From: Fimbriimonadales bacterium
Lineage (GTDB): Bacteria > Armatimonadota > Fimbriimonadia > Fimbriimonadales > ATM1
Assembly (NCBI GenBank): GCA_041744215.1
Contig: JBGTLG010000006.1
Coordinates: forward strand, 1 to 64,000
DNA: 64,000 nt
Direction of reading: 5' to 3'
Both the position numbers and the translations under genes were made by a program. The notes under the pieces are model-generated. The model worked only from the letters and a program-made list of their open reading frames with translations, had not been told where the DNA came from and made no database searches. Positions 3,009-62,099 of the stretch are shown in pieces (the stretch's first letter is position 1; each line of letters opens with the position of its first letter).

Positions 3009-4352
3009 ATGAAAAGCGTGACGCCTATAGACGGCGCGACCCTTACGGAAAGCGTCCGGTTTGAGCCGGGCGTTTACTTTGTGCCTCGGGGCATATCGAT
3101 TGGAAGACCGGGAATTCGAGTGGAAGGCGAAGGGGTCACCTTGGTCGGTGCAAACAAGGAAGGAGTGGGAGTCTCGCTCTCTGGGGTTGATGGCGTCGAA
3201 GTCCGTGGCATCCAACTGCGCGACTTTTATCACGGGCTGCGTGCTGAGAATTGCTCGGGGCTCGTCATATCAGATTGCCGGATCACGTCGACTTCCGAGA
3301 TCGCGCCGAATTCGGTGTTTCTCGACATTTGGCTCGATGCGAGCAGCTCATACGGCGGAGCGATCTGCTTAGTATCGTGTGCCGATAGTGAGGTTGTGGA
3401 GAACGATCTCCAGCACCAAATGAACGGATTGCTGACTTACGGATGCAAAAACCTCGCTGTTCGGAGAAACCAGAGCAACTACAACAGCGGTTTTGGAATC
3501 CATCTTTATCAAACCGTCGACTCGGTGTTTGAAGCGAATTCTTGTGACTACTGCTGCCGATTCGAGCCGAGAGAGGGTGGACTTCACTTCGGACACATGG
3601 GTGCCGATGCAACAGGATTCCTTGCGGTCATGAATTCATCGCGCAACCTGTTCTTGCGAAACACGGCGAGGCTCGGTGGAGACGGCTTCTTTCTTGCTGG
3701 CCTCTCACCGAACGGAACCCCATGCGGATGTAATGAAAACGTGTTTGAAGAGAACGACGCCTCCCTTAGCCCAAACATTGCCTTTGAATCTACGTTCTGT
3801 GAGCGTAATGTCTTTCGCGGAAATGTAGCAGACCGGTGCAACTTCGGCTTTTGGTGTGGATACAGCAAAGACTTTGTGATCGAGAATAACAGGATTTTGT
3901 GGAATCGACAAGCGGGTATAGCAGTTGAAAACGGAGTCGGCTTTCGCGTTAGCGGAAATCACTTCCAGTCAAACGGGCACGGCATCTTGTTATGGAGTCA
4001 CTACGTCGAGGAGTTTCTGAAGGCATATCCAGACAGGGATACCAGTCGGGAATGGGAGATAGAGGACAATCGCTTTCTAAACAACGGGATCGGTGTTCGA
4101 ATCGCCGCCGACCAAGACCACGGAATTCGAGACCAGGAAGTGCGGGGCCCGGACGAGAGTCGGCCGCACTCACACAGGATCATCAAGAACGACATACAGG
4201 ATAATCGAGTTGGCGTAGAATTCGTGCGAACCAGTCGGAATGTTTTACGCGAAAACCGAATTCGGAACAATGTCGAGGCAGGCGTTCGGCTCGACGACTC
4301 GAGCGATAACGAAATCGTAAACAACCTTGGGCTCAGAGGCGCCTACTTGTGA
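3009..4352 (+). CDS. Right-handed parallel beta-helix repeat protein (NosD/pectin-lyase-like)
   Basis: Repeated N/G-rich PbH1 units (ENNRILWNRQAGIAVENG, NRFLNNGIGV, NDIQDNRVGV); stop overlaps pyrD start (GTGA). Confidence 0.8.
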   Translation: MKSVTPIDGATLTESVRFEPGVYFVPRGISIGRPGIRVEGEGVTLVGANKEGVGVSLSGVDGVEVRGIQLRDFYHGLRAENCSGLVISDCRITSTSEIAPNSVFLDIWLDASSSYGGAICLVSCADSEVVENDLQHQMNGLLTYGCKNLAVRRNQSNYNSGFGIHLYQTVDSVFEANSCDYCCRFEPREGGLHFGHMGADATGFLAVMNSSRNLFLRNTARLGGDGFFLAGLSPNGTPCGCNENVFEENDASLSPNIAFESTFCERNVFRGNVADRCNFGFWCGYSKDFVIENNRILWNRQAGIAVENGVGFRVSGNHFQSNGHGILLWSHYVEEFLKAYPDRDTSREWEIEDNRFLNNGIGVRIAADQDHGIRDQEVRGPDESRPHSHRIIKNDIQDNRVGVEFVRTSRNVLRENRIRNNVEAGVRLDDSSDNEIVNNLGLRGAYL

Positions 4353-5332
4353 GTTACGATTTCATCCGGCGCGTGCTTTTCTCACTCGATGCGGAGCGCG
4401 CGCATGATTTGGCGATGTGGTCGATTGCAACGGGTTTGGTTTCAGGAGGCCGCCCTGTTGCAGTGCCGTGCAGCTGTGTGTTGTTCGGTCGCTTGATTCC
4501 ACACCCGATTGGTTTGGCGGCGGGATTCGACAAGAATGCTCTCGCTATCGACGAGTGGGAATCGTTGGGATTCTCTTTCGTAGAAGTAGGCACGGTCACG
4601 CCTTTGCCGCAAGAAGGTAACCCCAAGCCGCGACTGTTTCGATTGCCAGAAGACAACGCGATCATCAATCGAATGGGATTTAACAACGATGGGGTTCAGG
4701 TTGTCGCCAATCGGCTCGAAGCTCGGCAGTCGCGGATTCTTGTCGGTGTTAACATTGGCAAGAACAAGTGGACGCCGAATGAATTCGCGGTGTCCGATTA
4801 TGAAAACTGCTTGAAGGCAGTGCGAAGTGTTTGCGATTACGTTGTCGTAAACGTCAGCTCGCCAAACACACCAGGCTTGCGGGATCTCCAGTCCGTCGAA
4901 TCGATATCAAGAATTCTAGACGCGATGACTCGAATCGCTCCGTCCATGCCGATCGCGATCAAACTCAGTCCCGATGCCCATGATGACGAGCTTGCTCAGA
5001 TTGCGGAGGCCGCGGTCAACGCCGGAGCGCAAGGGATCGTTGCGACTAATACCACCCTTTCCCGAGACGGGCTCCAATCGGACAATCGGAATGAAGCAGG
5101 CGGGTTATCTGGAATGCCGCTTTGCGATCGCGCAACCGATGTTTGCAAAATTGTGAGGGCGAGTATTGGTGATCGAGCGAACGTGATCGGTGTGGGCGGC
5201 ATTTTCACGGGCGAGGATGCACAAACTAGACTTGCCGCCGGTGCGAACGCAGTGCAGATATACACTGCGCTTGTCTATCGTGGCCCGGCTGTTGTCAGTG
5301 AAATGCTGACCGAGATGGTCAATGCTGGTTAG
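4349..5332 (+). CDS. pyrD: Quinone-dependent dihydroorotate dehydrogenase (class 2)
   Basis: GLAAGFDKN, GNPKPRLFRL, INRMGFNN, NVSSPNTPGLR, KLSPD, GGLSG, IGVGGI. Confidence 0.96.
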   Translation: MSYDFIRRVLFSLDAERAHDLAMWSIATGLVSGGRPVAVPCSCVLFGRLIPHPIGLAAGFDKNALAIDEWESLGFSFVEVGTVTPLPQEGNPKPRLFRLPEDNAIINRMGFNNDGVQVVANRLEARQSRILVGVNIGKNKWTPNEFAVSDYENCLKAVRSVCDYVVVNVSSPNTPGLRDLQSVESISRILDAMTRIAPSMPIAIKLSPDAHDDELAQIAEAAVNAGAQGIVATNTTLSRDGLQSDNRNEAGGLSGMPLCDRATDVCKIVRASIGDRANVIGVGGIFTGEDAQTRLAAGANAVQIYTALVYRGPAVVSEMLTEMVNAG

Positions 5333-6072
5333 CGCGGCTCCCCATCTAGCTTCCATCGCAGGGTGCCATCCCACCCGTTGATTCTAAATCGGTAGCCATC
5401 CTCGTCGACATCTATCACCGCGACCGCTTCTCGCGGCGCGCCCCTCTCGATCGCAGCAGCCCACATCGACTCGATCGACAACTTTGGCTCGCCGATCCCT
5501 CCGGGAAGTTTTCCGATCGTCGGCGAACCCTTCGTTATGACCATCCCCTTGTTCTTGAAACGATATTCCTTGTTGATGTCCCCGCCTCGCGATACCACGT
5601 GTCGCACTTGACCTGGCCGGTAGCACTCAACTTTCACCCGCTCTATCCAAACGTCATCGGGGCCTCGCCCGGCGCCAAGCGGAGGCATCTCCTCTGGAGG
5701 ATTTTTCGGCGTGCGGACAAACGTGTACTCGACTCTTGGCGGGGGCTTGTAATCGGCTGACAGATCGACGCGCCCATTCGAGTCGACGAAGCTGATGGTG
5801 ATACTGACGAGGCGCGCGTCAGCTCCAACTCGCTCTCGAATCCCGTCGAGAGCAGCGAACGGCTCGAAGCGCTCCGCGTCACCCGGTACCGGGAACGTCT
5901 CTTCGTTCATGATCGCTGTGTTGATCATCTCCATAAGCCACATTCCCGGCTGGCAAGAAATGATGAGTGCGAGGGGGATAACGACCACAGCGATCAGGCA
6001 GCCGATGATCCCGCATGCAAGCTTGAACGGGCGGCGCTTCCGCCCAATCTGAAGGGTTGGATCGGTGTACAC
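5329..6072 (-). CDS. Hypothetical membrane-anchored protein
   Basis: Long ORF with one hydrophobic helix (IIGCLIAVVVIPLALII) after a basic patch; GTG at 6072 chosen to avoid overlap with the divergent protease; start uncertain. Confidence 0.6.
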   Translation of the reverse strand: MYTDPTLQIGRKRRPFKLACGIIGCLIAVVVIPLALIISCQPGMWLMEMINTAIMNEETFPVPGDAERFEPFAALDGIRERVGADARLVSITISFVDSNGRVDLSADYKPPPRVEYTFVRTPKNPPEEMPPLGAGRGPDDVWIERVKVECYRPGQVRHVVSRGGDINKEYRFKNKGMVITKGSPTIGKLPGGIGEPKLSIESMWAAAIERGAPREAVAVIDVDEDGYRFRINGWDGTLRWKLDGEPR

Positions 6073-6180
6073 AGTTAGTTTGGGAGCATTATTCTCGAAT
6101 TTTGAGTCGGACTTGAGGCCCAGTGTGTCGAAACTTGAGCGTCTGCCAGCGTTTACGCCGTAAAATGAACTGGGCTCACT

Positions 6181-7290
6181 ATGACTAAAGCCGTTCCGTA
6201 CATCTTTCTCTTCTTGGCGGTGTTTGGCGGGGTTATCGGGGGAATGTTCGTCTACGACCGATTTGTCCACCCAACACCTAAGCCGGCCGATTCGCTCTCG
6301 GCATTCGTCAACTCAACCCCGGTCAATCTGCCCAGGGAACCGGGGCAGATCGCGTTCGAGGGGACAGCCGCCCGGCTGTTGCCATCGGTGGTGTCCGTCT
6401 ACCGGAGGCAGCAGACCTACTTCAGCGACGAACTGCAAGTCAGCGGGCAGGGCTCGGGGGTCATCCTCACAGCGGACGGCTACATCATTTCCAACCACCA
6501 CGTTGTCGCAGAGGCCCAGTCGGTCGACGTCAAACTGAGCGATGGCCGGGTGCTCCAGGCACAGCTCGTCGGCGAAGACCCAATCAGCGATCTAGCGCTC
6601 CTAAAGGTTGAAGCCACAGGATTGCCCGCTGCGGAGCTTGCCGACAGCGACCAACTCGTCATCGGCGAGTGGGTTTTGGCAGTCGGAAGCCCCCTCGGGT
6701 ACGAAAGCACGCTCAGCATAGGAGTCGTCAGCGCAAAGAACCGAGACCTGCCAGGAGAACGTGGACGCGCACCGCTCATCGGAGCGATCCAAACCGACGC
6801 CGCGATCAATCAAGGAAACTCCGGCGGCGCGCTGGCGAACATCCACGGTCAGGTGGTTGGCATTAACACGCAGATCGCCAGCACAACTGGCGGCAGCATC
6901 GGCATCGGATTCGCTATCCCGGCGAACAGCGTCAAGCGGTTTGTCGACGACATCCGCAAGTTCGGTCGACCGAGACACAGCGACCTCGGCGTACTTAGAT
7001 TTGGGCGATCCGAATGGCTGAGGGACCCCGGTTTCGCCGATGAGATCGGACCGAATCCGCCGCAACAGGGGCTTGTGATCTGGGCGGTCGTCCCTGGCTC
7101 TCCGCTCGAAAAGGCTGGGATTGGCAAGCTCGACGTACTCATCGATATTGATGGCAAGCCGATGGCGACGCTTGACGACTATCTGACATTCCTCCTTAAG
7201 TCGGAGATCGGCCAGACTGTCAGCGTCAAGTTCTGGCAAAAGGGCCAGGTTAAAACCGTGCAAATACCCCTCGAGGAGATGCAATCATAA
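6181..7290 (+). CDS. HtrA/DegP-like trypsin serine protease with one PDZ domain
   Basis: N-terminal TM helix, GSGVI, NHHVV (His), DLALLKV (Asp), IQTDAAINQGNSGG (Ser), GIGFAIP, C-terminal PDZ. Confidence 0.95.
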   Translation: MTKAVPYIFLFLAVFGGVIGGMFVYDRFVHPTPKPADSLSAFVNSTPVNLPREPGQIAFEGTAARLLPSVVSVYRRQQTYFSDELQVSGQGSGVILTADGYIISNHHVVAEAQSVDVKLSDGRVLQAQLVGEDPISDLALLKVEATGLPAAELADSDQLVIGEWVLAVGSPLGYESTLSIGVVSAKNRDLPGERGRAPLIGAIQTDAAINQGNSGGALANIHGQVVGINTQIASTTGGSIGIGFAIPANSVKRFVDDIRKFGRPRHSDLGVLRFGRSEWLRDPGFADEIGPNPPQQGLVIWAVVPGSPLEKAGIGKLDVLIDIDGKPMATLDDYLTFLLKSEIGQTVSVKFWQKGQVKTVQIPLEEMQS

Positions 7291-7317
7291 AGGACGTTCA
7301 AACGTCAGGAACTATAG

Positions 7318-8904
7318 TTGGAAAGAGTCAACGCAGAACTTCTTGAAATCCTCAACGCCTTGCCCCCCGTCGTCCGCGACACCATCCTCAAAAGCCCGGA
7401 TCGCGACCGCGTCATCGAGATCGTTATCGACTACGGTCGCCCCGCGGAGATTCGCTATACGGACCGTTTTGAACGGCTGACCGAATACGTCGTTGACGAG
7501 GACGACATTCGGTTCATCACCGAGCGGGTGGGGGAGTTTGGAGGAGACAACCGGGCCGGAATCGAACGCACGCTGCACCGCATCAGCGCGATTCGAAACC
7601 GCACCGGGCGCATCGTCGGATTAACTTGCCGCGTCGGTCGCGCCATTCATGGAACGATCGACATGATCCACGACATAGTCGAAACGAACAAGTCGATCCT
7701 CTTCCTCGGGAAACCTGGCGTCGGAAAAACGACGAAGCTGCGCGAGGTCGCGCGAACGCTCGCAGATGATTTTAACAAGCGCGTCGTCATTGTTGATACA
7801 TCAAATGAAATAGCCGGCGATGGCGACATACCGCATCCCGCGATCGGTGCAGCGCGACGAATGCAAGTGAGCGATCCGTCTGCGCAACATCAAGTGATGA
7901 TCGAAGCAGTCGAAAACCATATGCCCGAAGTCGTCGTCATCGACGAGATCGGAACCGAGATGGAAGCGTATGCAGCGCGAACTATCGCAGAGCGTGGGGT
8001 GCAACTCGTCGGCACGGCGCACGGCCGCACGCTTGAAAACTTGATGCTCAACCCGACGCTTTCTGATCTCATCGGTGGAATTCAAACCGTTACGCTATCC
8101 GACGACGAAGCGAAACGGCGCGGAACGCAGAAGTCCGTTCTTGAACGCAAAGCGCCGCCAACATTCGACGTCATCATCGAACTGATCGATTACGACAAAC
8201 TCGCCGTCCATCACGACGTGCAGCGAACCGTCGACGCGATACTGCGCGGTATGCAGCCGCAGCCAGAAATTCGCGTACGAACAGAATCGGGGGATTATGA
8301 AGTCGTCGCGAAATCGCGCGTGCCAGAACCGATGGAGCCCGTTCGCAGACAAGGTTCGAAACCGCCCGAACAGCCCATCCCCGCAGTTCCCAGCGTGACG
8401 CGCGCCGGTCACACAAACGGCGACACGAAACCGCTCGCGCGCGTCATGCGCATTTATCCGTATGGAATCGCGCGAACAAGACTCGAACGTGCGATACGAG
8501 AAAAGAAAGCGCCCGTTGTCATAAGCAACGATCTTTCCGATGCCGACGCAGTGATCGCAATGCGCTCGTCGCTTCAGCGCAAACCCGCGAAACTGCGCGA
8601 GAGACTTGGAAGATCGATCCCAACCATCGCAATCAAGAGCAACACACTTGCGCAGATCGCAAGCGCGCTCGACGATCTGCTGCGAGGCGCGGCGAGCGAT
8701 CCCGAAGCCGAAGAGATCACGCGCGAAGAAGTGCTCGAAGCAATCGAGTTCGTAAGAACAAAAGGAAAAGCGTTTGAACTTAACCCAGCTGGCCCGACGA
8801 TTCGCAAAATGCAGCATCACCTGATTGAAACGCACCGACTGCGAAGCGAAGCGGTCGGGCGCGATCCAAACCGCCGCGTGCGGATTCTTCCAGTCGGAGC
8901 ATGA
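7318..8904 (+). CDS. Ycf45/SpoIIIAA-like AAA ATPase with C-terminal R3H domain
   Basis: [11 protein letters not shown], Walker [31 protein letters not shown], Walker B IDEIG, R3H motif RKMQH. Confidence 0.88.
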
Positions 8905-9518
8905 AAGGCCGATTCATAACGCTCGAAGGACCCGATGGCGCGGGCAAATCCACTCTCGCAAAAGCCATCGCAGAAAAACTCCGGCAACACAACATAGAAG
9001 TCCTCACAACGCGAGAACCAGGAGACGGAGCCATCGGCCCCAAAATCCGCGAAGCAATCCTCGATGGCGACAGCCTCGACTCCTGGACAGAACTCTTCCT
9101 CTTCCTCGCCGACCGAAGCCAGCACGTTCTAAACGTCATCAAACCCGCGCTCGAAGACGGCAAGTGGGTCGTCTGCGACCGGTTCTCCGACTCCACAAAC
9201 GTCTACCAAGGACACGCGCGCGGCCTGCCGCTCCCCGAGCTTTATCACCTGAACATCCTCGCGACCCACGGCGTGCATCCCGACGCGACGCTGCTCCTCG
9301 ATCTCCAACCCGAAGTCGGCCTCGCGCGCCTAAAAGACAAGAACCGGCTCGACAAAGAGCCGCTGGAGTTTCATCAAAGGGTGCGAAAGGGATTCCTCAC
9401 CGAGGCGCACAGGCACCCCGAGCGCTGGCACGTGCTTGATGCCGCCCAAGCGCCCGATGCGCTGCTTGATGATGCGTGGAGCGCGCTCGCCCCCCTCCTC
9501 GCCATGCGGCATCAGTAA
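8901..9518 (+). CDS. tmk: Thymidylate kinase
   Basis: [36 protein letters not shown] overlap with upstream gene. Confidence 0.96.
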
Positions 9519-9550
9519 GAGGGGCAACCCAAGCGCACCTCGGCCAAGAA

Positions 9551-10429
9551 TCAGTACTTCACGCGCACATAGATCGTCGCCTGCACGGCGGGTTCGATCA
9601 CAACCGGGTTGATCACATGATCGAAATCCTGCGCACTTAGCGCATTGTAATAAAACGTTCTCGGCTTGCGCGCGCGCTGAATCGTCATGCCTTGACGATA
9701 ACCCGCAACGTTCTCCGACTCTTCCGCAACATATGCGTCATACATATCAACAGGAAAATACAGGCTGACCCGAACAGGAAGAACATGCGTCAATTGCCCA
9801 ACCTTAACGCCGAGCAGCAACTCCTGTTCCTCCGCTTTCGCCTTGATCACGCTCGACGCAGCTTCCATCAACCGCTTGCGAATCGGCGCGATATCCGCGA
9901 TCACATAGTCCACCTTTACTAAATCGAAAATCCCCGACTTCGACGCGGAAGCAATCAGCTTATCCAGCATCGACTTGTCGCGAAAGCGAATCGAGACGTT
10001 CTTCTTCACCTCGAATCCAACAAGCTGCTCGATAGCGACGTTCGCTTGCGAAACGTCGTAGCCATAGATTCGGTTTTGCGCAATGAAATCAACAAAGTAA
10101 TCGCTCGCCGCGATGTTGAGCTGCCCCAGGCTTTCGGAAAACGACTTGACGCGCGCATCCATTCGCTGCTGCGCATCGTCGAGCGTGCTCCCTTCCTGGC
10201 TTATGCCAAACACCGCGACGTATTCGTCCGGCGCAACGTTCATCAGCACGCTCGCGTCGAGAAACCGACCGTCTTCAAAAGGAAAGTTGCGCTTTGCGAG
10301 TTCGTTCGCTCGCGCAGCGAGCACGCCCGATACCGCGCGGCTCGAGAAGGCGGCGCTGCCGCCGGCGATTTGGGCGGCTGCGTTCGCGGCTATGGCGATG
10401 AGTGAAAGGATCGACAAGAGTTTGTGCAT
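9551..10429 (-). CDS. SIMPL (DUF541) domain periplasmic protein
   Basis: Signal peptide; pattern V(A)PDEYVAVFGI, GFEVKKNVSI, AKAKAEE..LLGVKVG resembles SIMPL. Confidence 0.7.
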   Translation of the reverse strand: MHKLLSILSLIAIAANAAAQIAGGSAAFSSRAVSGVLAARANELAKRNFPFEDGRFLDASVLMNVAPDEYVAVFGISQEGSTLDDAQQRMDARVKSFSESLGQLNIAASDYFVDFIAQNRIYGYDVSQANVAIEQLVGFEVKKNVSIRFRDKSMLDKLIASASKSGIFDLVKVDYVIADIAPIRKRLMEAASSVIKAKAEEQELLLGVKVGQLTHVLPVRVSLYFPVDMYDAYVAEESENVAGYRQGMTIQRARKPRTFYYNALSAQDFDHVINPVVIEPAVQATIYVRVKY

Positions 10430-10772
10430 CGTTCAATCTCCTCGGCCCGGGTTGTTTCGGGCCACCGGGTTAGACGTGGCCGGGCGCGGAAAGGCTACTC
10501 GATGCGACTTGCCCAAGTTGATCGAGACGCCTGCCGATGCGGAGGCCAGAACCGATGCTTTGTGGCGTAAGATGAGGCTCGAAAGTCATGGAAGAGTTGG
10601 GCGCGCTCAACATCGCCAACTACAACCTCCGGGTCAAGTTCTCGGCGGGCTACGTCGCGAGCGAGACTGCGGCTGGCGATCTTTTTGGATAGATTGTGGA
10701 GCGCGGCGCTTCGGCCCGGACCCGGTGGCGTCGTCACTGAGGTTGTGAGTGTTGGAACGGTAAACTCGGTCT

Positions 10773-10982
10773 ATGGGTACGTACTCAGCCAGTGCTTCCG
10801 GCATGGTCGGACCAGCGGGAATCCCGCCCAGTTCTAGGCCAATGAACTCCTCACGACTCGGTGCCGTAAACAACAAAAGCGTTGAGGACTACTACTATCA
10901 CCAGGCCGCGACTACCCAGGGATTTGCTCTCCCCTTGTCCTGGAACCTCTCGCGGTTTTTTTCAACTTCTGAGTCGCGATGA
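10773..10982 (+). CDS. Small hypothetical protein (69 aa)
   Basis: ATG 6 nt after TAAACT (leaderless signature); stop overlaps the next start (ATGA at 10979). No recognisable family. Confidence 0.3.
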   Translation: MGTYSASASGMVGPAGIPPSSRPMNSSRLGAVNNKSVEDYYYHQAATTQGFALPLSWNLSRFFSTSESR

Positions 10983-11272
10983 GGATCGAGTTTTTGACCA
11001 AGCCGAAGTGCGAACCGTCCGAGGTGATGTATCCCCGGGTTGTCGAGGTTCTGGGAGCAGATGGGTTCGAAGTCGTAGACGTCGCGCAGTTGCCGTTGGA
11101 CGACGTCCGCCGAGGTTACGACACGCCAACGCTGCTCCTAGACGGTGTGGACGCGTTCGGCTCCGTGCCTAGGCGCGACCTTACGCTCCCGCCTAACTGA
11201 CGGCTCTATCCGGGCGGGGTCCCGTCCGTCGAGAAGCTCAGAGACGCTTTCGCAGATAAGAGGCGGCCATGA
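10979..11272 (+). CDS. Thioredoxin-fold small protein (DUF2703/DF-type), probable selenoprotein with Sec at TGA 11198-11200
   Basis: MRIEFL...C at N-terminus, TPTLLLDGVD core; after the TGA the frame continues RLYPGGVPSVEKLRDAFADKRRP*, giving U-R-L-Y where this family has C-R-x-Y; SECIS-like hairpin follows. Confidence 0.75.
11201..11230 (+). promoter_or_regulatory. Candidate bacterial SECIS element
   Basis: Stem GGGCGG/CCGTCC closing a GGTC loop whose first G lies 17 nt downstream of the in-frame TGA. Confidence 0.6.
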
Positions 11273-11435
11273 AGGTCCATCGCATTTTGTCAACCGGCCA
11301 AACGTGCAATCAGCGACCGGCCGTGGACGTACGTCGTGGTCGCGCCGATCCAGTACCTTCATGATTGTGGGCCTTGCGATCTTCTGCATAGTCGCAAACG
11401 ACTATGCTATGAAGTGTAGCGCGTAAACTGCGCCC

Positions 11436-12179
11436 ATGCTCGAAGCCCTCGTCGCGCTGGTCGCCGTTGTGGCAGGGATGGTGGCGAGCGTGGTCGGGTT
11501 CGGCATCGGGTCCCTGCTAACGCCCACGCTGGCAACGCAGATGGACATGAAGATCGCGGTCGCCGCGGTCTCCGTCCCGCACCTCATCGCAACAGCCTAT
11601 CGCCTCTGGCTGGTGAGAGACGCGATCAACAAAGATGTGTTCAAGAGCTTCGGGCTAACGAGCGCGGTCGGTTCGCTTTGTGGGGCATTCCTCGGCGCGA
11701 TCTGGGGAAACGCAGGGCTTGGCGCGCTGCTCGCCGCGCTGCTTCTCTTCGTCGGGATTGGCGGGCTGACCGGCCTTCTCGATCGGCTACAGTTCCACGG
11801 GAAGGCGCGCTGGGTCGCGGGGCTGGCGTCGGGCCTGTTCGGCGGTCTGGTTGGCAACCAAGGCGGCGTGCGCTCCGCCGCGCTGCTGGGGTTCGACCTA
11901 AACAAACAGGCGTTCGTCGCGACCGCGACGGCGAGCGGCGTGATCGTGGACCTCGCGCGGATGCCGGTCTATGGTGCGCTGTATTGGCGGCAACTTATGG
12001 AGCAATGGCCGCTTATTGCGATAGCGACGGCAGGATGTCTGATCGGCACGGTGGTCGGCAAGCGAACGCTCGACAAAGTTCCGCAGACCTCGTTTCGCAA
12101 GGTCGTTTGCGTCGTGCTCATCGCGACTGCGGTGTTCGTTCTCGCGCGGTTCGTGTTCGTTGCTCTGCCTGCGATTTGA
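11436..12179 (+). CDS. TauE/SafE (TSUP) family sulfur-compound exporter
   Basis: About 8 hydrophobic helices, GFGIGSLLTP and GLFGGLVGNQGG repeats, AFVATA motif. Confidence 0.88.
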   Translation: MLEALVALVAVVAGMVASVVGFGIGSLLTPTLATQMDMKIAVAAVSVPHLIATAYRLWLVRDAINKDVFKSFGLTSAVGSLCGAFLGAIWGNAGLGALLAALLLFVGIGGLTGLLDRLQFHGKARWVAGLASGLFGGLVGNQGGVRSAALLGFDLNKQAFVATATASGVIVDLARMPVYGALYWRQLMEQWPLIAIATAGCLIGTVVGKRTLDKVPQTSFRKVVCVVLIATAVFVLARFVFVALPAI

Positions 12180-12358
12180 TTGAAGCGCGAGCCTGCTGCG
12201 CCCGGCGCGCTTCTGACAGTTCTCACTCGAAGAATATGCTTTTCAGGTGCGCATCTCACGCGCACTGCGCCGCAAGCCTCCGTCAGGGGATTGATATCTC
12301 TCGGTCCGTAGCGCTTCATATCAAAAAATGAGCGCGCTGATCTTAAAAGCCCGGGGTG

Positions 12359-12571
12359 CTATCTCTCCAAAAGCGCCTCGCCCTCTTCGGTCAGCGAGAC
12401 CCGCGAACCGCCCGCCTCCAAACGCAGCAAGCCGTCCGCGACCGCGTCCTCCCAAGGCGTGAATCGGGGGCAATGGCTTTTCCAGGCGTCCATCGTCTCG
12501 GCATAGGTGCGCGGCCGCTCCCGAACCCATTCGAGCAGTTGCAAAACGAGCGAAGCCGACGAGGCATCCAT
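12359..12571 (-). CDS. Small conserved hypothetical protein (about 70 aa, winged-helix-like)
   Basis: LLEWVRERPRTYAETMDAWKSHCPRFTPWEDAVADGL and terminal LTEEGEALL resemble a widespread uncharacterised family. Confidence 0.65.
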   Translation of the reverse strand: MDASSASLVLQLLEWVRERPRTYAETMDAWKSHCPRFTPWEDAVADGLLRLEAGGSRVSLTEEGEALLER

Positions 12572-12609
12572 CTTCGACGCCCAGTCTACTGCCCGTGCGG
12601 AAGCGTCAT

Positions 12610-14577
12610 CTATCCCCTCCCCAAAAACCGCGTGATTTCGTCGAAGGTCACCCACCCGTCGCCGTCGAGGTCCATCTTCTTTGCGTTGGCGATTCCGGCG
12701 CGCAGGAGCGCCTTTACGGTTTCGGCTTTCTTGGGCAAAGGGGGATCGAAGAGAAACGCGCCGGGGGGCGGATCGCCGGCCAGAAGGAAGTTGGCGACGA
12801 AGAAGGTGTAGTCGGCGGTGGCGGCTTTGCCGTCGGCGCTAAAGTCGCAATGGGGCGGTGGCGTTCCGATCGGGGTGTCGGGTGTCGGCCATTCGGTTCC
12901 AAACTGCGCGGCGAAGATGGCGAAATCAACGATGTCGATCACGTTGTCGCCGTTCGCGTCCCCGCCAAAGAGGGCGACGCTGGCATCATACTTGCTGCCT
13001 CCCAAATGCGCGACGGCCGCCGTTGTGCGAACGGTGTGCAGCGGATCCTTGACAGAAACCAGCGTGAAGTTCGCGTTGTTCGCGGGCACCCCGTCGGCAT
13101 CGGTCAAAACGATGGTGCCGGTTCCATTTGGCGCAAACAAAACATCGCGTTCGATAAACACCGGCGATCCGCTTTGCGTGCCGCCCATATGAATCTCCAT
13201 TCCGCGCGTGAATGATGAGGTGTGTGACGCGCCAATCAGCTGGATTGTCAACTCGAAACGCGGCGATTGCGGCTGCTGATACTTGATCGTGTAATAGTCT
13301 GCGTTCGTCGCGACCGAACGACCGGTGACGTAGACTCCTCCGGTGTCGTCGATGCAGATCGCATTCGCTTCGTCGAGTGTATTGCTCGGGCCGTTGTAGC
13401 GCATGACCCATTCGAGCCCACCGTTCGAGTCGTATCGAATCGTGGCGTAGTCCATGTGGCCATTCGCCGCAGCAGAGCCTCCCGTTACGTAAACCTCGTC
13501 GTCGGGACCCAGCGCGGTGGCTTTTGCGATGTCGGTTCCGCCCACGCCGTCGTATCTGGCCACCCAAAGTTGAGTGCCCGCCGAATCGTATTTTATCGTC
13601 GCGTAGTCTGCGCCGAATCCAGACCTATGGGAGTTTCCTGTGACAATCACGGAACCATCGGCAGTGACCACGATTGCGTTCGCAACATCCTCTCCGAGGC
13701 TTGGGCCGTCATAACGCGCGACCCAAACCTGCGTACCGTCACCCGCTGCGTACTTGATGGTTGTGTAGTCAACGTTCGAACTTGTCGATCGCGAAAATCC
13801 AGTTACGTAGACGAATCCATCTCGGTAGGCCATGGCCGTCGCACCATCAGCAGAGTTTCCGGGCCCGTTGTAAAACTTCGACCACTGAAGCGTTCCTGCT
13901 GAATCATATTTGATAAGCACGATGTCGTCGTTTGTTCCGATTCTGCCAATGCCGCACACATAGACGTTTCCGCTCTCGTCGAGCGCCATGGCAAAGCCTT
14001 CGTCTCGGCTGGACGCCGGTCCATTGAAGTGTCGCGTCCACAGTTCGTTGCCATCGTTGTCATACTTGATCGTCGTAATGTTTGCGGTGTTGAGGGTGGC
14101 GCCGTTTGATCCGCCGGTGACATAGACGTTGCCGCTTGCATCGACGCAGATTGCGCGCGAGAGGTCGTGGGCGCTTCCTGCGGTTGTAAACCTTCTCACC
14201 CACACTTGGCTGCCATTCGGATCGTATTTGACCGTTGCGTAATCGAACCCTGTCGTCGCCGTTATCGATTCGCCGGTTACAAAAACGTTGCCGCTTGCAT
14301 CGACGGCGAGCGCGCGGGCTCGATCTGCGCCTGCGCCGCCGTGGTAGCGCGCTTCCCAAAGCAGCGCGCCAGAAGGGGAGAGCTTTAGCGTTGCAAAGTC
14401 GGAGTTGTTCCCGAACGATTCGCCTGTGACCAGGATGTTTCCTTGATGATCGCGCGCGATTGCGTAGGCTATGTCCACGCCGCCGGTTCCTATGTATCGG
14501 TGCCCCCACTCCTCGGCGACCTGCGCGTGCGACGCGGTCGCGGCGACGGCCGCCGAAAGCCACAATCCTCTCTTCAT
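12610..14577 (-). CDS. Secreted SBBP-repeat beta-propeller protein with C-terminal dockerin-like/EF-hand region
   Basis: Signal peptide; seven repeats of type AIAVDxSGNVYVTG...DYATIKYDxxGxxxWxxRY; GDANGDNVIDIVDF, DFSADGK and DLDGDGWVTFDE calcium-binding loops. Confidence 0.88.
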   Translation of the reverse strand: MKRGLWLSAAVAATASHAQVAEEWGHRYIGTGGVDIAYAIARDHQGNILVTGESFGNNSDFATLKLSPSGALLWEARYHGGAGADRARALAVDASGNVFVTGESITATTGFDYATVKYDPNGSQVWVRRFTTAGSAHDLSRAICVDASGNVYVTGGSNGATLNTANITTIKYDNDGNELWTRHFNGPASSRDEGFAMALDESGNVYVCGIGRIGTNDDIVLIKYDSAGTLQWSKFYNGPGNSADGATAMAYRDGFVYVTGFSRSTSSNVDYTTIKYAAGDGTQVWVARYDGPSLGEDVANAIVVTADGSVIVTGNSHRSGFGADYATIKYDSAGTQLWVARYDGVGGTDIAKATALGPDDEVYVTGGSAAANGHMDYATIRYDSNGGLEWVMRYNGPSNTLDEANAICIDDTGGVYVTGRSVATNADYYTIKYQQPQSPRFELTIQLIGASHTSSFTRGMEIHMGGTQSGSPVFIERDVLFAPNGTGTIVLTDADGVPANNANFTLVSVKDPLHTVRTTAAVAHLGGSKYDASVALFGGDANGDNVIDIVDFAIFAAQFGTEWPTPDTPIGTPPPHCDFSADGKAATADYTFFVANFLLAGDPPPGAFLFDPPLPKKAETVKALLRAGIANAKKMDLDGDGWVTFDEITRFLGRG

Positions 14578-14740
14578 TCCCTCTCTCCTTGCCGCCTCAG
14601 GCCCCCCGGTCCGCGACCCTCTCGCGACGTTGGGGAAAGTCTACAAAAACTGGCGGGCGATGTCAAGGCCTAATTACCAGGTTTTTTGAGGTTTGGGGTC
14701 GGGTTGGGTCGGTCGCTGGGTGAATACACGCGGCGAAACC

Positions 14741-14958
14741 GGCCCGATATCGGAAACCGCCAGCGCGACGGTGGTGGCGTAAAGTAAACATCGCCGGGGC
14801 GGCAACGCCCCGGCGTTTACTCGATTGCTCATATTTACCGCGGTCGTAAATATGACCCAGACTGTAAACGCTGATGACCAGGCAGGCCCGGATTCCAAAC
14901 CGATGGCGCGACGGTAAGGGCGTAAACTAAACACCGCCGGGGCGACAACGCCCCGGCG
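14741..14958. repeat. Two imperfect direct repeats of about 75 bp (14741-14815, 14885-14958), each ending in a perfect 10-bp GC hairpin, separated by a third hairpin
   Basis: Shared GGCCCG..AAACCG-NNN-GCGCGACGGT..GGCGTAAA-N-TAAACA-N-CGCCGGGGCG-(G/A)CAA-CGCCCCGGCG; spacer hairpin TCATATTTAC/GTAAATATGA at 14829-14855. Confidence 0.85.
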
Positions 14959-15017
14959 GGAAACAGCTAGTTTTGTGAATCAGGCCGAAAGTTTGGCGGC
15001 GCGAGGGAAGATGCGAC

Positions 15018-16103
15018 ATGAGTCTGATAGAAGAGTATAGGAACACGAGACACGAGTATGAGGCGGCTACAACTAGCTTTCGCAAACTGATAGAAGGGAT
15101 CCTCAGCGACCGGAAGGATGAAATTCATCACATCGAAGACAGATGCAAGGACGTGGAGAAGCTAGAAGAAAAGATTGAGCGAAAGGAGTTTAAGTACGAG
15201 AACCTCGACAATGTCTCTGATCTATGCGGTGTGCGCGTCATTACTTACTATCAAGACAGCGCACGGGCCATCGCCGAGATCCTAAAAGCCGAGCTGGAGC
15301 TAATTGAAGTTGTAGACCATAGTTCGCACGATGACGAGCCGGGACAGTTCGGCTATGAATCCATCCATTTAGTTCTGACATTAGATTGGATGAGGCGACA
15401 ACAACCTGAGAATCGGCCGTGCGGTGACAAGAGAGTCGAGGTTCAGATTCGAACCGTCTGCCAACATGCTTGGGCTGCGATAAGTCATAAGTTGACGTAC
15501 AAAACGGGCAACCGTGCTCCGGCCGTAGAACGGCAACTCAATCGATTATCCGCCCTGTTGGAGATAGCGGATGACCAATTCATCAAGATTCGAGACTCTG
15601 TGAACAAAGCCCGTGAGGACTACGATGCTGAGTTTCAGTCCGGAAACTTTGCCCAAGAACTCAACTGGGATTCGCTGATTATGTTTCTCGAAAACCACTT
15701 TGATCTGCCGCGCTTCTACGATGTCGTGGAGTCTCTCGGCATGCCGCTGGTTAGCCGCGACAATGATGGGGGCGAGAATGCAGACTTCGCTCCAATATTG
15801 CTCGAATTGCTGGGATGGATGGGCATCAGCAGCATAGACGCATTGCGCACTGCGGTGAACGCTGTGTTCCAACAAGGGAGCAATCTCGGAGAGTGGTTGG
15901 AGCAGATCGGAGCTGAACTGATTGATCGATATCCCATGTACAAGGTGTGCACGCTGCAAGTGCTTCTGATTTTGATAGTTGCAAACTCACCGCAAATCAC
16001 AGACCTCGATGCCATTGGGGCTTTTATTGGGCCTCGCGACATCGTCTCATCTCGTATTCAGGAGTACTGGGACTCCCACTCCGCACAAAGTGAGGACTTG
16101 TGA
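15018..16103 (+). CDS. RelA/SpoT synthetase-domain protein (small alarmone synthetase-like) with uncharacterised C-terminal domain
   Basis: Synthetase motifs RCKD...K, DLCGVRVI, GYESIHL, EVQIRT, HAWA..SHKLTYK; no hydrolase, TGS or ACT domain visible. Confidence 0.9.
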   Translation: MSLIEEYRNTRHEYEAATTSFRKLIEGILSDRKDEIHHIEDRCKDVEKLEEKIERKEFKYENLDNVSDLCGVRVITYYQDSARAIAEILKAELELIEVVDHSSHDDEPGQFGYESIHLVLTLDWMRRQQPENRPCGDKRVEVQIRTVCQHAWAAISHKLTYKTGNRAPAVERQLNRLSALLEIADDQFIKIRDSVNKAREDYDAEFQSGNFAQELNWDSLIMFLENHFDLPRFYDVVESLGMPLVSRDNDGGENADFAPILLELLGWMGISSIDALRTAVNAVFQQGSNLGEWLEQIGAELIDRYPMYKVCTLQVLLILIVANSPQITDLDAIGAFIGPRDIVSSRIQEYWDSHSAQSEDL

Positions 16104-16182
16104 TTCTTTTGTGCCCGCACCTCTTTCCGTCTACGCGCGGGGCCAGGGCTTCGGGCTGGGCTGTTGGGGGTAGGCTTTTCGC

Positions 16183-17025
16183 ATGGGAATGAGATGGATT
16201 AAGCTGCTTAGCCTGGCGCTGCTTTGCGCAGGCTCTCTCCTTATCTCGAGTTGCCAAACCGGAGGCGGGCTCGTCTTCGTGTGGTTTATCTCGGACCGAA
16301 ACGGCAACCGCGACCTCTATCGAATGCTCACCAACGGAGCGGACGTTACGCAGATCACGAACGGGCTTTCTATCAACAGCTTCGACATCGACCGGCTGGG
16401 CCGGACCGTTGTTTTCGATTCGCTGACCGACCCGCAGATCTTTCGGATGAACTCCGACGGCACCGGCATCACGCCGATCACCACCGGGATCGCGAACAAG
16501 GCGCACCCGTCGATCAATCCCGCAGGAACGCACGTCGTGTTTTCGTCGGGGGGGAATCTGTGGACGATTGCGATCGACGGCAGCGGAGTGCAGATTCTTA
16601 CGAACACGGCGGATCCAGACGAGCAGCCGAATTGGGGCGCGAGGAATGTGATCGTTTTCAAACGCAACAACGACATTCGCGTTGTGAACAGCGACGGCAC
16701 CGGCGGCGCCGCGCTGACGACTTCGGGGCTTTCGAATTCGGGGCCTTCTTGGTCTCCTGACGGCGAGCGGGTTGTTTATTCGAGCGGCGACGTGGGTGGG
16801 ATCGAAATCTGGATCATGAATGCGAACGGCTCGAACAAAACGCGCGTGACCATGAATGCGTTCAACGACTTCAGGCCGAAACTGGGAAGCGACAATGAGA
16901 CTCTGTTTTGGTATCAGAATCAATCGGGGAACTTCGAGATCATGCGCAAGAAGATCGGCGAGCCGAGCGAAACGAATCTGACAGTGATGGCGGGACTCGA
17001 CATTTCGCCTTCGCTGTCGCGGTAG
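16183..17025 (+). CDS. TolB-like PD40/WD40 beta-propeller lipoprotein
   Basis: Lipobox-like LLISSC; repeats SDRNGNRDLYRM..G..VTQIT, PSWSPDGERVVYSS, IWIMNANGSNKTRVT. Confidence 0.85.
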   Translation: MGMRWIKLLSLALLCAGSLLISSCQTGGGLVFVWFISDRNGNRDLYRMLTNGADVTQITNGLSINSFDIDRLGRTVVFDSLTDPQIFRMNSDGTGITPITTGIANKAHPSINPAGTHVVFSSGGNLWTIAIDGSGVQILTNTADPDEQPNWGARNVIVFKRNNDIRVVNSDGTGGAALTTSGLSNSGPSWSPDGERVVYSSGDVGGIEIWIMNANGSNKTRVTMNAFNDFRPKLGSDNETLFWYQNQSGNFEIMRKKIGEPSETNLTVMAGLDISPSLSR

Positions 17026-48682: not shown

Positions 48683-49084
48683 ATGCTTAAGACTTTCTTC
48701 CCAGCTGTGATCGCCGCTGCTGCCATAGCCATGATTGGCTATGGCTGTAGTAGCAGCGAGACCGCAGATGATGGGCACGGCCCGGCCGACGTCCACTCCA
48801 GCGACGATGGCCACAACCATGGCGCAGACAAGAACCCCGCCGTAGAGCCTGCTCCAGGAGGGGCCGCCAATTCGGCAACCTCAACCGGTCCGGGGACGAC
48901 CGAGCCCGTGGTCTACACGGAGAAAGGGAAGCCGACCTGTGTTGTCATGGCTGGAGTCTCAATGTCCAGCGTCGAAGGCAAGAAGTTCCAGGACCACGAA
49001 GGTGTCCGGTACTACTTCTGCTGCGATGGATGCCCAGAGAAGTTCGCCGCAGACCCGGCAAAGTACGCCAAGAAGCCAGAGTAA
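48683..49084 (+). CDS. YHS-domain lipoprotein with His-rich linker (putative metal binding)
   Basis: GYGC lipobox, DDGHGPADVHSSDDGHNHG, CVVM, YYFCCDGC..KFAADPAKY. Confidence 0.85.
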   Translation: MLKTFFPAVIAAAAIAMIGYGCSSSETADDGHGPADVHSSDDGHNHGADKNPAVEPAPGGAANSATSTGPGTTEPVVYTEKGKPTCVVMAGVSMSSVEGKKFQDHEGVRYYFCCDGCPEKFAADPAKYAKKPE

Positions 49085-51958: not shown

Positions 51959-52882
51959 ATGTTGCCGCGTTCGCTTCGCTCGCTTCTTTCCGGGATAATC
52001 GACTATGCCGGGATGTACCCTCCGGCCCAGCTGCCATTTGAAGAGGCGCTGAAGAATTACGTCGAGTATGACTCCCGCCCGTATAGCTGGATGGTGGGTC
52101 AATTTGTTTGTCCGATCACCAAGCTCTCTGAACTGCGAGCGCTGGATGCGCTGTATTCACACTGGAGCGATCTTCCGCTTGCACTGATTGGGAGTCCTGC
52201 AACGACCTTGAGTGAGTTATCGTCGAACTGTCAATCAGACTTTGACGAGTTCACAAAATTTACCGAAAGCAATTGGAGACCCATTTCCTACGAGTTCCGC
52301 ATCGGGCCGGAGCTGGCCCGCGAAAAGGACCTCGCATCCGCCGTTGAAGCCGTCGTTCACGCAAGCCCAGCGGATGTAGTTTTTTGCGAGATTCCCATCC
52401 TCGAATTGACCGACGACACGACCGCAGGTGCAATTGATGCGATCGCCGCGGTTGAAGGCTGCGCGACAAAGCTTCGCCTCGGCGGAGCTTCCGCTGATGC
52501 AATACCAAGTACGGAATTGTTGGCCTTCGCTATTGAGCGGCTTGCCTGGAGCGAAACGACGGTAAAGTTCACCGCAGGGCTACACCAACCCCTTTGCCAG
52601 GCGGACCCGGCTCTCGGTGCCCGAATGCATGGATTCCTAAATGTGTTCTGCGCGTCGGTGCTCGCGTGCGCGCATCGGCTCGAGCGTCAGACCATCGAGG
52701 CGATTCTAATGGAGTCGGATCCAGCACAGTTTGTTTTCGATGACGCTGGCCTTCGCGTAGGGAGCATTTCGGCGACTATGTCACAGATCGAAACGGGAAG
52801 GACCTTCGCGGTCGGCTTTGGATCATGCTCCGTCCTCGAGCCGGTCGAAGGCCTCGTCGCACTCGGATACACACTCGAATAA
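51959..52882 (+). CDS. Conserved hypothetical protein upstream of fumarylacetoacetase
   Basis: GIIDYAGMYPPA, KLRLGG, KFTAGLH, MHGFLN, FGSCS..EP motifs. Confidence 0.75.
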   Translation: MLPRSLRSLLSGIIDYAGMYPPAQLPFEEALKNYVEYDSRPYSWMVGQFVCPITKLSELRALDALYSHWSDLPLALIGSPATTLSELSSNCQSDFDEFTKFTESNWRPISYEFRIGPELAREKDLASAVEAVVHASPADVVFCEIPILELTDDTTAGAIDAIAAVEGCATKLRLGGASADAIPSTELLAFAIERLAWSETTVKFTAGLHQPLCQADPALGARMHGFLNVFCASVLACAHRLERQTIEAILMESDPAQFVFDDAGLRVGSISATMSQIETGRTFAVGFGSCSVLEPVEGLVALGYTLE

Positions 52883-52887
52883 CAGAT

Positions 52888-54177
52888 ATGGCTATCGATC
52901 CGACCACTAATCCAAAGGCCCGATCATGGATCCATGTTGATCCAGAGTCGCACTTTCCAATACAAAACATGCCTTACGGCATCTTCTCTCGAAAGCACGA
53001 AAGCAAGCGCGCTTGCATCGCGATTGGTGACCATGTGCTGGATCTCGCGATTCTTTACGATGAAGGACTTTTATCGCAAGGACAGATTCCGTTCAACGTT
53101 TTTGCGCTCGACAGGCTGAATGAGTTCATGGCGTGCGGGAGGTCGGCGTGGACGTCGACTCGCAAACGGCTGTTTCAACTTCTGGAGGAGAAAACTCCAG
53201 ACTTGCGCGATAACGTGATGGTGCAGCGACGTGCGTTGATTCCGATGGCCGATGTGCAGATGCACCTACCCGTGTTTATAGGTGACTACGTCGATTTCTA
53301 TTCGTCAGAACAGCACGCGACGAACGTCGGCAGCATGTTTCGCCCGGACAACCCGCTCATGCCCAATTGGAAGCATCTTCCAGTCGGCTATAACGGCCGA
53401 GCGTCGAGCATAGTGCTGTCCGGCGCGGCGATTCGAAGACCGTGCGGACAGATTCTCCCGCCGAACAGCGAGCAGCCGATCCAGTCGGCCTCCAACGCGC
53501 TCGACTTCGAACTCGAAGTCGGCTTCTACACCGGCAAGTCAACCGAGCTTGGAAGCAGGGTGCCGACGAGCGAGGCGGAAGACTACATCTTTGGAATCAC
53601 GCTTGTTAACGATTGGTCCGCGCGCGACATTCAGCGGTGGGAGTATCAACCTCTTGGGCCGTTCTTGTCGAAGTCGTTTGGAACGAGTGTTAGCCCTTGG
53701 GTTGTCACGCTAGATGCACTCGGGCCATGGCGAATCGCCGGACCCAAGCAGTCCCCCCCCGTTCTGCCGTATCTTAAGTATCGTGGCAAGTGGCGCTTTG
53801 ATATCCAACTTGAGGTGTGGCTGCAAACACAGAAAATGACGTCGCCACAGAGCATCTGCAAAACAACCTTCAAGAACATGTATTGGAACATGGCTCAGCA
53901 GCTCGCACACCAATCCGTCAACGGAACCAACATACAGGTGGGCGATTTGTATGCAAGTGGCACTGTCTCAGGCGATACTCCGGACAGCTACGGGTCTATG
54001 CTTGAGCTTGCTTGGCGCGGGGAGAAGCCGATCGAGATGAGCGAGACGGGAGAAGCTCGGTCTTTCCTGGAGGACGGGGACGTGGTGGCGATGACGGGTT
54101 GGTGCCAAGGGGAGGGCTACCGGGTCGGCTTCGGCGAATGCGTAGGGCAAATCCTGCCTGCCGAAGAAATCGCGTAA
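52888..54177 (+). CDS. fahA: Fumarylacetoacetase
   Basis: [68 protein letters not shown]. Confidence 0.95.
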
Positions 54178-61663: not shown

Positions 61664-61749
61664 TCCAAGCCGCGATGCCCGCTGCCGCGCTCCGAGCGGC
61701 CCGCGCGCGCATCCACGGGGCAAAACCACGCGTTGCAGCGGCTGCATGG

Positions 61750-61896
61750 CGTCATCACGCTCCGTCATTGCGTCATCACGCTCCGTCATTGCATCATCGC
61801 GCTCCGTCATTGCATCATCGAGCTCCTTCATTGCATCATCGAGCTCCTTCATTACATCATCGAGCTCGGTCATTACATCATCGAGCTCCGTCGTTA
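61750..61896. repeat. 21-bp tandem repeat, 7 copies plus a partial eighth
   Basis: Consensus CATCATCGAGCTCCGTCATT(G/A); units begin at 61750, 61771, 61792, 61813, 61834, 61855, 61876; no spacers. Confidence 0.95.
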
Positions 61897-62099
61897 CATC
61901 ATCACGGAGCTCAAACACGTGATTCCGGGGCTCATCCCGTTAACCACCCTCGGCCCTACTCGCTTCGCTCTCGCCGTTCCCACATAGGCGCGCTGGATCG
62001 CGGCGCGGCCAGGGCGTCAGCGGGGACTGGGGGAAGCCGATAGAGCCGCCGATCCTCCGCCGACCACAGGGGAGGAGGCTGCCGTTCGCGTGGATCGCG

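Follow-up and report, generated by a model that had tools for sequence, protein, structure and literature searches.

The 64-kb stretch of DNA analysed in this study (64,000 nucleotides of contig JBGTLG010000006.1 from a Fimbriimonadales bacterium, called the window in the following) contains at positions 10979-11272 what appears to be one gene for a 97-residue protein with a thioredoxin fold, in which the in-frame UGA at codon 74 would be recoded as selenocysteine (Sec) by the standard route involving a selenocysteine insertion sequence (SECIS). Judged from the comparison with related sequences, the probability of this reading is roughly 75%. The open reading frame (ORF) that starts with ATG 10979 comprises 73 codons (10979-11200) and has TGA 11198-11200 as its stop. 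Beyond this TGA the frame stays open for 23 more codons, up to TGA 11270-11272. The translation past the stop reads U74-RLYPGGVPSVEKLRDAFADKRRP; it opens with U74-R-L-Y-P-G-G-V-P-S-V-E, proceeds through K-L-R-D-A-F-A-D and ends on K-R-R-P. The resulting product of 97 residues contains Cys11 (TGC 11009-11011) and position 74 as its sole Cys/Sec residues.

According to the mechanism proposed here, UGA74 would be read as Sec and not as a stop, and the hairpin which the mRNA could form 17 nt further downstream (11211-11228) would recruit SelB and the Sec-tRNA. The reactive centre of the protein would pair Cys11, whose C-x-x-S motif stands where helix 1 begins, with Sec74 on a conserved loop. These two residues could act as a selenenylsulfide redox couple, or else provide both ligands of a sulfur/selenium site for a thiophilic metal(loid). 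The favoured, though tentative, role would be to handle mercury-like or other soft metal(loid)s, or adducts of these, through thiol/selenol chemistry. Among fold, recoding and function, it is the function that we infer, and it is the weakest part of this proposal.

Comparison with related genes

Of the 16 candidates from a word-indexed protein search, 11 reached E ≤ 0.01, including the window's own 73-aa call. The remaining ten are 60-78% identical to the window protein and all terminate at the same spot, directly before column 74 (eight with 73 aa, one with 80 aa including an N-terminal extension, and one 53-aa fragment). A motif-biased scan of genome contigs gave 65 loci, namely the three closest ones (L001-L003) and 62 actinobacterial ones (L004-L065). 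For the three closest loci the tblastn match comprises query residues 1-92 and thereby crosses the stop. The closest orthologs, L001 and L002, are found in metagenome-assembled genomes (MAGs) of Fimbriimonadaceae (Armatimonadota), while L003 lies on a contig labelled as a Methanoregulaceae MAG (JADZEW010000035.1). L003 shares its gene order (S8 peptidase, PEP-CTERM protein, helicase, tRNA-Gln) with L002, and the two are 94% identical across the 200 nt downstream of the gene. The L003 contig is probably mis-binned and bacterial.

The DNA of L001, which harbours two copies, and of L002 and L003 exhibits a TGA at codon 74 and a second stop at codon 96-97. Including the window gene, TGA is present at codon 74 in all five gene copies of this clade that were read as DNA. 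The in-frame tail of the L001-L003 genes retains the sequence R-[LY]-Y-P-G-G-V-P-S-V-E. Among the four genes compared, 13 of 21 columns are invariant after the TGA versus 40 of 73 before it, and pairwise amino-acid identities range from 62 to 71% after and from 60 to 77% before the TGA. By this comparison the tail is conserved to the same degree as the protein body. At the other end of the gene, the clade homologs have the start codon and the N-terminus M-R-I-E-F in common with the window gene.

In more distant relatives the position of the TGA is occupied by Cys. When the first 30 loci were translated, all 27 actinobacterial ones among them showed C-R-L-Y at column 74, and a motif search in the 62 actinobacterial loci found TGC or TGT as the column-74 codon in 58 of them (the chosen ORF of the other four contained no motif). 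An exhaustive phmmer search against 1.84 billion representatives yielded 158 matches at E ≤ 0.001. The listed matches from both protein searches were combined with the query to a HMMER alignment of 161 rows. Column 74 of this alignment contains Cys in 117 rows (one of which is the query with its U written as C) and another residue in seven, and 37 rows end just before it; these shortened rows are protein calls, with the TGA at codon 74 having been read as DNA in the five copies mentioned above. At column 11, 140 rows have Cys and 19 a gap, and the remaining two contain a different residue. Positions R44, P50 (160/161), T51, G56, D58, R75, Y77, G80 and P82 are nearly invariant in the family. 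The initial annotation of this locus had proposed that the frame continues past TGA 11198-11200 to a 97-aa product, that the TGA stands at a Cys position and that the continuation completes the tail of small thioredoxin-fold proteins. All three proposals agree with the alignments described here.

Three family members (P0050, P0077 and P0082) have W, G and R, respectively, at column 74 within otherwise conserved surroundings. Some of these residues could be TGA codons which the gene caller read under another code.

A midpoint-rooted FastTree phylogeny of 158 sequences, calculated from the columns before 74 only, groups the ten members of the window clade together (support 0.86), with a Ser-bearing protein as sister, and at least six changes between Cys and truncated forms are required. 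No direction of evolution was drawn from this tree, which is based on a short alignment and has modest support.

The SECIS-like hairpin

The hairpin downstream of the TGA consists of 7 bp, including one G-U pair, and a GGUC loop, with 17 nt separating the TGA from the loop. Folded alone it has a free energy of -11.3 kcal/mol. The loop of the SECIS in E. coli fdhF also contains GGUC. For comparison, the consensus for bacterial SECIS (bSECIS) elements was encoded from section 5 of PMC13188914: a loop of 3-9 nt, a stem of 4-16 bp, a G within the first two loop positions, a distance of 16-37 nt from the UGA and a minimum free energy of ≤ -7.5 kcal/mol. With its 4-nt loop, the hairpin at 11211-11228 is in agreement with every one of these published rules. 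An Rfam search around the gene (10400-11500, E ≤ 1) gave no match.

Bases 11207-11229 are invariant across all compared genes, at an overall nucleotide identity of 64-81%. Synonymous sites were analysed at codons whose amino acid is invariant and which have synonymous alternatives, again in the four genes. At codons 77-83, which lie under the hairpin, all seven such positions use the same codon in all four genes, versus only 7 of 39 at codons 1-73 (one-sided Fisher P=6.4e-5); at codons 85-95 the count is 0 of 4. This pattern indicates selection on the RNA sequence on top of selection on the protein, at the place and with the spacing that a bacterial SECIS needs. A GGTC-loop hairpin with bacterial SECIS geometry had already been part of the initial annotation, and both the consensus rules and the frozen synonymous sites speak in its favour.

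Fold and predicted active site

An AlphaFold2 model based on a 76-sequence alignment predicts with high confidence that the 97-aa product has a thioredoxin fold (predicted local distance difference test score 96.0, predicted template modelling score 0.87). The model comprises a strand (3-7), a helix (12-25), a strand (31-34), a helix (43-46), a strand (51-54), a long ordered loop and a final helix (84-95). In a Foldseek search against the PDB, chains of thioredoxins and glutaredoxins lead the top matches, and ArsD is also present. These structural matches to thioredoxin-fold chains are weak, the best one being 3zij (E 0.028, probability 0.97; template modelling scores 0.4-0.6). On the sequence level, the family profile matches the M. 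jannaschii thioredoxin 1fo5 with an E of 7.8e-7.

Like thioredoxin- and glutaredoxin-fold proteins such as 1fo5, 3zij (BC3987) and ArsD (3kgk), the window protein shares the fold and has its first Cys where helix 1 starts, which is the classical position of the thioredoxin active site. It also shares with thioredoxins a conserved Pro, as P50 is located where the cis-proline loop lies, and its R-G-x-x-T-P-T-L-L stretch is one that we take to resemble the thioredoxin cis-Pro region. Unlike thioredoxins, the window protein contains no CxxC motif: the motif is C-E-P-S in the window protein and C-P-x-T/S in the family, and the second residue, Cys/Sec74, is placed on a 23-residue loop ahead of the last helix. 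This conserved loop, U-R-x-Y-P-G-G-x-P, leads from the last strand to the C-terminal helix, and in thioredoxins the loop ahead of the last helix borders the active site. The sequence thus points to a distal Cys11/Sec74 pair instead of CxxC, just as had been suggested initially. A product of 73 residues would be without the conserved loop and the final helix.

The window protein has no signal peptide and, as far as its sequence tells, should be cytoplasmic. Many family members have signals of the lipoprotein type, in which a small residue and Cys come behind a hydrophobic stretch. Such signals stand at the start of many homologs of 125-145 aa (e.g., P0013, P0017, P0021 and P0163-P0168) and were seen, for example, in members from Phycisphaerales MAGs. 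For a large part of the family export is therefore probable, in contrast to the window protein.

Table 1. Positions of the putative selenoprotein gene and its elements within the window.
Feature	Positions	Strand	Basis
Full proposed selenoprotein gene, 97 codons and terminal TGA	10979-11272	+	annotated ORFs end at codon 74
Cys11 codon TGC, in C-E-P-S at the N-terminus of helix 1	11009-11011	+	alignment, model
In-frame TGA at codon 74, proposed Sec codon	11198-11200	+	TGA in L001 (two copies), L002 and L003
Putative coding tail after the TGA: R-x-Y-P-G-G-x-P-S loop and C-terminal helix (residues 84-95)	11201-11269	+	conservation, model
SECIS-like hairpin, stems 11211-11217 and 11222-11228, GGUC loop 11218-11221	11211-11228	+	bSECIS rules, frozen synonymous sites

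Family placement and known relatives

At E ≤ 1 the read-through protein had no match in Pfam, and none, DUF2703 included, turned up for 24 homologs at E ≤ 0.01. Among curated models, NCBIfam NF049942 ('DF family (seleno)protein') alone gives a match, with 13 bits (E 0.078), far below the cut-off of 70 bits. This match spans the entire profile (residues 3-90 versus profile positions 1-96 of 96), and the model also matches 22 of the 24 tested homologs with 16-55 bits, all under the cut-off. From the label DUF2703/DF-type in the initial annotation, the DF part thus survives as a distant relation only, while DUF2703 has to be dropped. According to these profile scores the relationship to DF is distant and sub-threshold, and by the curated test the window protein is not a member; its clade is an uncatalogued one with a distant relationship to the DF (seleno)protein family. 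A literature search found no paper for a selenoprotein 'DF family'.

Xiao & Zhang (2025; PMC12013277) took the name of the 'hypothetical protein DF' from Desulfosediminicola flagellatus. Like the window protein, DF proteins are small (about 96 residues), and the family includes both Sec and Cys forms. PMC12013277 reports Cys homologs of DF, but no TGA-containing homologs in other Sec-utilizing organisms, and a table in a review from 2026 (PMC13188914) contains DF with one Sec and without a motif. In the published sequence, as given in the supplement of PMC12013277, Sec is found in U-N-A-A-T at residue 11 counted from an internal Met. By eye this Sec aligns with Cys11 of the window protein, not with Sec74, and the selenium of the window protein would be at the other reactive position.

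The same supplement (file 4, row 14) has the published DF ending at residue 76 from the internal Met. With an offset of +3, taken from the P-T and D columns, the DF stop lands by eye exactly on column 74, and the NF049942 profile with its 96 positions continues past the published end. Judged by this alignment, the DF gene may have been cut at a second in-frame stop.

A further group of relatives is the N-terminal domain of MerB-like proteins from actinobacteria (Streptomyces, Kitasatospora, Rhodococcus and others; L004-L065), which is homologous to the window protein with 29-46% identity over residues 1-92. It has the same Cys11 and Cys74 columns, but in a Cys and not a Sec form, and most of the actinobacterial forms have an insertion after C-R-L-Y. 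The window protein, in contrast, is stand-alone with no mer genes nearby.

A table in PMC13188914 describes SaoT (Haft & Gwadz 2023) as a thioredoxin-like selenoprotein working with the MerB-like selenoprotein SaoL. This pairing of a thioredoxin-like selenoprotein with a MerB-type organometallic lyase is echoed by the actinobacterial fusions. SaoT differs from the window protein by its UxxC motif and by having a model of its own (NF040730). This model did not match the window protein at E ≤ 1, and no MerB-like gene was found in the window.

Genomic neighbourhood of the related genes

In 20 of the 62 actinobacterial loci a MerB (alkylmercury lyase) domain is encoded in the same open frame as the homologous domain, and a MerR-type regulator is directly adjacent in 26 of the 62. 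Judged by title and abstract, a literature search retrieved no paper describing a MerB-thioredoxin fusion in Actinobacteria.

The two Sec-form copies of L001 (2704-2991 and 4892-5179) are 2.2 kb apart, with identical sequences after codon 74 and 77% amino-acid identity before it. Between them lie a gene for an ArsR-family regulator (3108-3491; HTH_5, E 9.6e-18), an unassigned ORF for 166 aa (3694-4194) and a gene of the thioredoxin/TlpA type that matches YHS weakly (4199-4849); an AcrB-type pump is encoded nearby. In L003 a superoxide dismutase gene is found beside the gene. A blastp comparison of the window ORFs from 6000 to 17000 with L001-L003 revealed the putative selenoprotein gene as the sole shared gene.

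Alternative explanations and possible function

Several results weigh against the proposed recoding. Taken alone, the open extension and the hairpin are not above chance expectation: of the 1932 TGA triplets counted over all frames of the window, 859 precede a stretch of 23 or more codons free of stops, and 16 TGA sites of the window, including the one at codon 74, pass the same loose bSECIS rules. As 25 of the 58 Cys-form homolog loci pass them as well, these rules alone cannot discriminate. The 71-nt region folds no better than shuffled versions (z-score 0.15), and no base of the hairpin varies, hence there are zero compensatory changes and no covariation to count. Furthermore, none of selA, selB, selD and tRNA-Sec was found in the 64-kb window by Rfam, ARAGORN and an ORF scan. 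The clade is represented by four to five DNA sequences, which correspond to about three independent lineages because L002 and L003 are near-duplicates and the L001 copies are identical after codon 74. With respect to the structure, the Foldseek search against the PDB gave no match at E ≤ 0.001, and the suggested closeness of Cys11 and Sec74 derives from general thioredoxin structure, not from the coordinates of the model. As extension and hairpin alone only reach chance level, the case for recoding rests on the comparison with related genes.

One alternative is that TGA 11198 is a true stop, leaving a truncated protein of 73 residues or a decaying pseudogene, with the downstream similarity being residual or unrelated. 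Every gene caller indeed ends the ORF there, extensions of 23 codons are common by chance as described above, and the window lacks visible sel genes. Nevertheless, this explanation appears highly improbable: the same TGA recurs in all five copies, the ten metagenomic homologs with 60-78% identity end at the same place, and the tail, which is free of frameshifts and extra stops and as conserved as the body, aligns to the Cys-form C-R-x-Y-P-G-G-x-P. A 73-residue product would also lose its C-terminal helix, and no second copy or upstream relic copy of the gene was found in the 64-kb window. A global change of the genetic code does not apply either, since TGA is the normal stop of 18 of the 40 Pfam-supported genes in the window. 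Another alternative retains the SECIS-dependent route, with UGA74 being decoded as Cys by a SelC-like tRNA charged with Cys (tRNA-ReC/SelC*). The whole sequence evidence fits such a decoding equally well. PMC13582414 reports that tRNA-ReC-like genes can insert Cys at a SECIS-marked UGA and that they occur beside canonical SelC in five of five Armatimonadota genomes carrying UXXU hydrogenases, and the closest orthologs of the window gene are in Armatimonadota MAGs. On the other hand, the window contains no tRNA-ReC-like gene, the genomes of that report possess canonical SelC too, and a clade-wide upkeep of UGA and SECIS merely for Cys would be less economical than a TGC codon. Decoding as Cys therefore seems quite unlikely. 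PMC13582414 also describes Armatimonadota genomes that possess Sec enzymes (hydrogenases) together with canonical SelC. A literature search combining Fimbriimonas and selenocysteine found no paper.

If UGA74 is read as Sec, the function of the selenoprotein has to be weighed separately. The MerB fusions and the MerR adjacency in the Cys-form relatives, together with the ArsR and thioredoxin genes beside the L001 copies, are the reason why a role in metal handling is favoured here, and by analogy such a metal-linked role is a tentative suggestion. This link derives from distant Cys-form relatives obtained in a motif-biased scan; moreover, the window has no MerB, MerR or ArsR near the gene, with MerB and MerR being absent from all 61 of its ORFs that were scanned, and neighbours of the mer or ArsR type are likewise missing in L002 and L003. 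About equally likely, and just as tentative, is a true selenoprotein that acts as a general thiol-disulfide oxidoreductase, i.e. as a glutaredoxin- or thioredoxin-like reductant with no metal role. Such a function fits with the thioredoxin-like fold and with the thioredoxin and glutaredoxin chains leading the structural matches. It is also consistent with the many lipoproteins with signal peptides in the family, as found in extracytoplasmic thiol oxidoreductases, with the superoxide dismutase adjoining the L003 gene and with the lack of metal genes near the gene in the window, L002 and L003. Against this function speak the C-x-x-S/T motif, which stands in place of CxxC and has its reactive partner on a loop far from it, and the strongest conserved associations found, which are those with MerB (fusion in 20/62) and MerR (adjacency in 26/62), together with ArsR in L001. 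A more specific version of the metal-linked role, in which the window protein would be a stand-alone selenium form of the MerB-fused domain whose Cys11/Sec74 pair captures or passes on Hg(II), organometal or other soft metal(loid) ions, appears doubtful and is likewise drawn from analogy. Finally, the initial annotation had combined the gene with the downstream TauE/SafE permease to a sulfur/selenium redox-export module. The TauE/SafE gene itself is real (11436-12179; PF01925, E 1e-25). It lies on the same strand, 163 nt away, with no predicted terminator in the spacer, and its sequence context makes co-transcription possible. The module, however, did not hold: a phmmer search with the TauE of the window through all 65 related loci gave no relative at E ≤ 1e-5, and Pfam found no TauE within 4 kb of the gene in the three ortholog loci. 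Furthermore, this TauE belongs to a very widespread YfcA-like type (7532 matches at E ≤ 1e-10 among 8000 scored). A literature search for selenoprotein and TauE gave nothing relevant by title or abstract among the matches listed. An export module is thus very unlikely, and the TauE/SafE neighbour is probably incidental.

If the window protein were indeed a stand-alone metal-capturing selenoprotein, its clade would be a new selenoprotein clade of the Armatimonadota with Sec outside the classical active-site motif, and the published DF selenoprotein would turn out to end prematurely at a second Sec codon, likewise at column 74. As gene callers end the gene at codon 74 in 37 of the 161 aligned rows, a likely selenoprotein clade is stored in shortened form and labelled 'hypothetical', with no curated model reaching its cut-off. 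Its recognition mends the annotation. Fimbriimonadaceae-like bacteria would gain a gene that uses Sec if the organism of the window is one of them, as its closest orthologs suggest, and the MerB fusion and the MerR/ArsR neighbourhoods provide a functional lead for a widespread family. The understanding of Sec recoding itself is unchanged, the mechanism being the standard one.

Additional observations in the window

ARAGORN reported a 94-nt 'tRNA-Ile(tat)' at 52829-52922 (-). This call overlaps two protein ORFs and has no Rfam tRNA match at E ≤ 1; it is probably a false positive and not a tRNA-Sec.

Among the other sites of the window that combine a TGA, an open extension and a hairpin, none has supporting evidence for a second selenoprotein gene. 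A DUF6785/DUF6784 gene (59702-61663) stops at TGA 61661, after which the frame is open for 107 further codons with a high GC content at third codon positions, and a weak hairpin behind this TGA passes the loose rules. The extension (61661-61987, +) is most likely the next gene in the same frame. At 48683-49084 (+) the window encodes a protein of 133 aa whose match to the YHS domain is confined to the C-terminal half of the latter (profile positions 21-45 of 47); YHS proteins figure in published selenoprotein lists, as given in a table of PMC9312934.

Upstream of the putative selenoprotein gene, about 40 nt (10904-10943) are 92.5% identical to positions 5184-5223 of L001, which lie directly downstream of a gene copy there (copy 1). 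In the window, the stretch 10904-10964, which includes a run of seven T (10958-10964), folds as a nested terminator-like hairpin with a non-significant z-score of -0.55. It finishes 14 nt upstream of ATG 10979 and may be the relic of a terminator or a leader.

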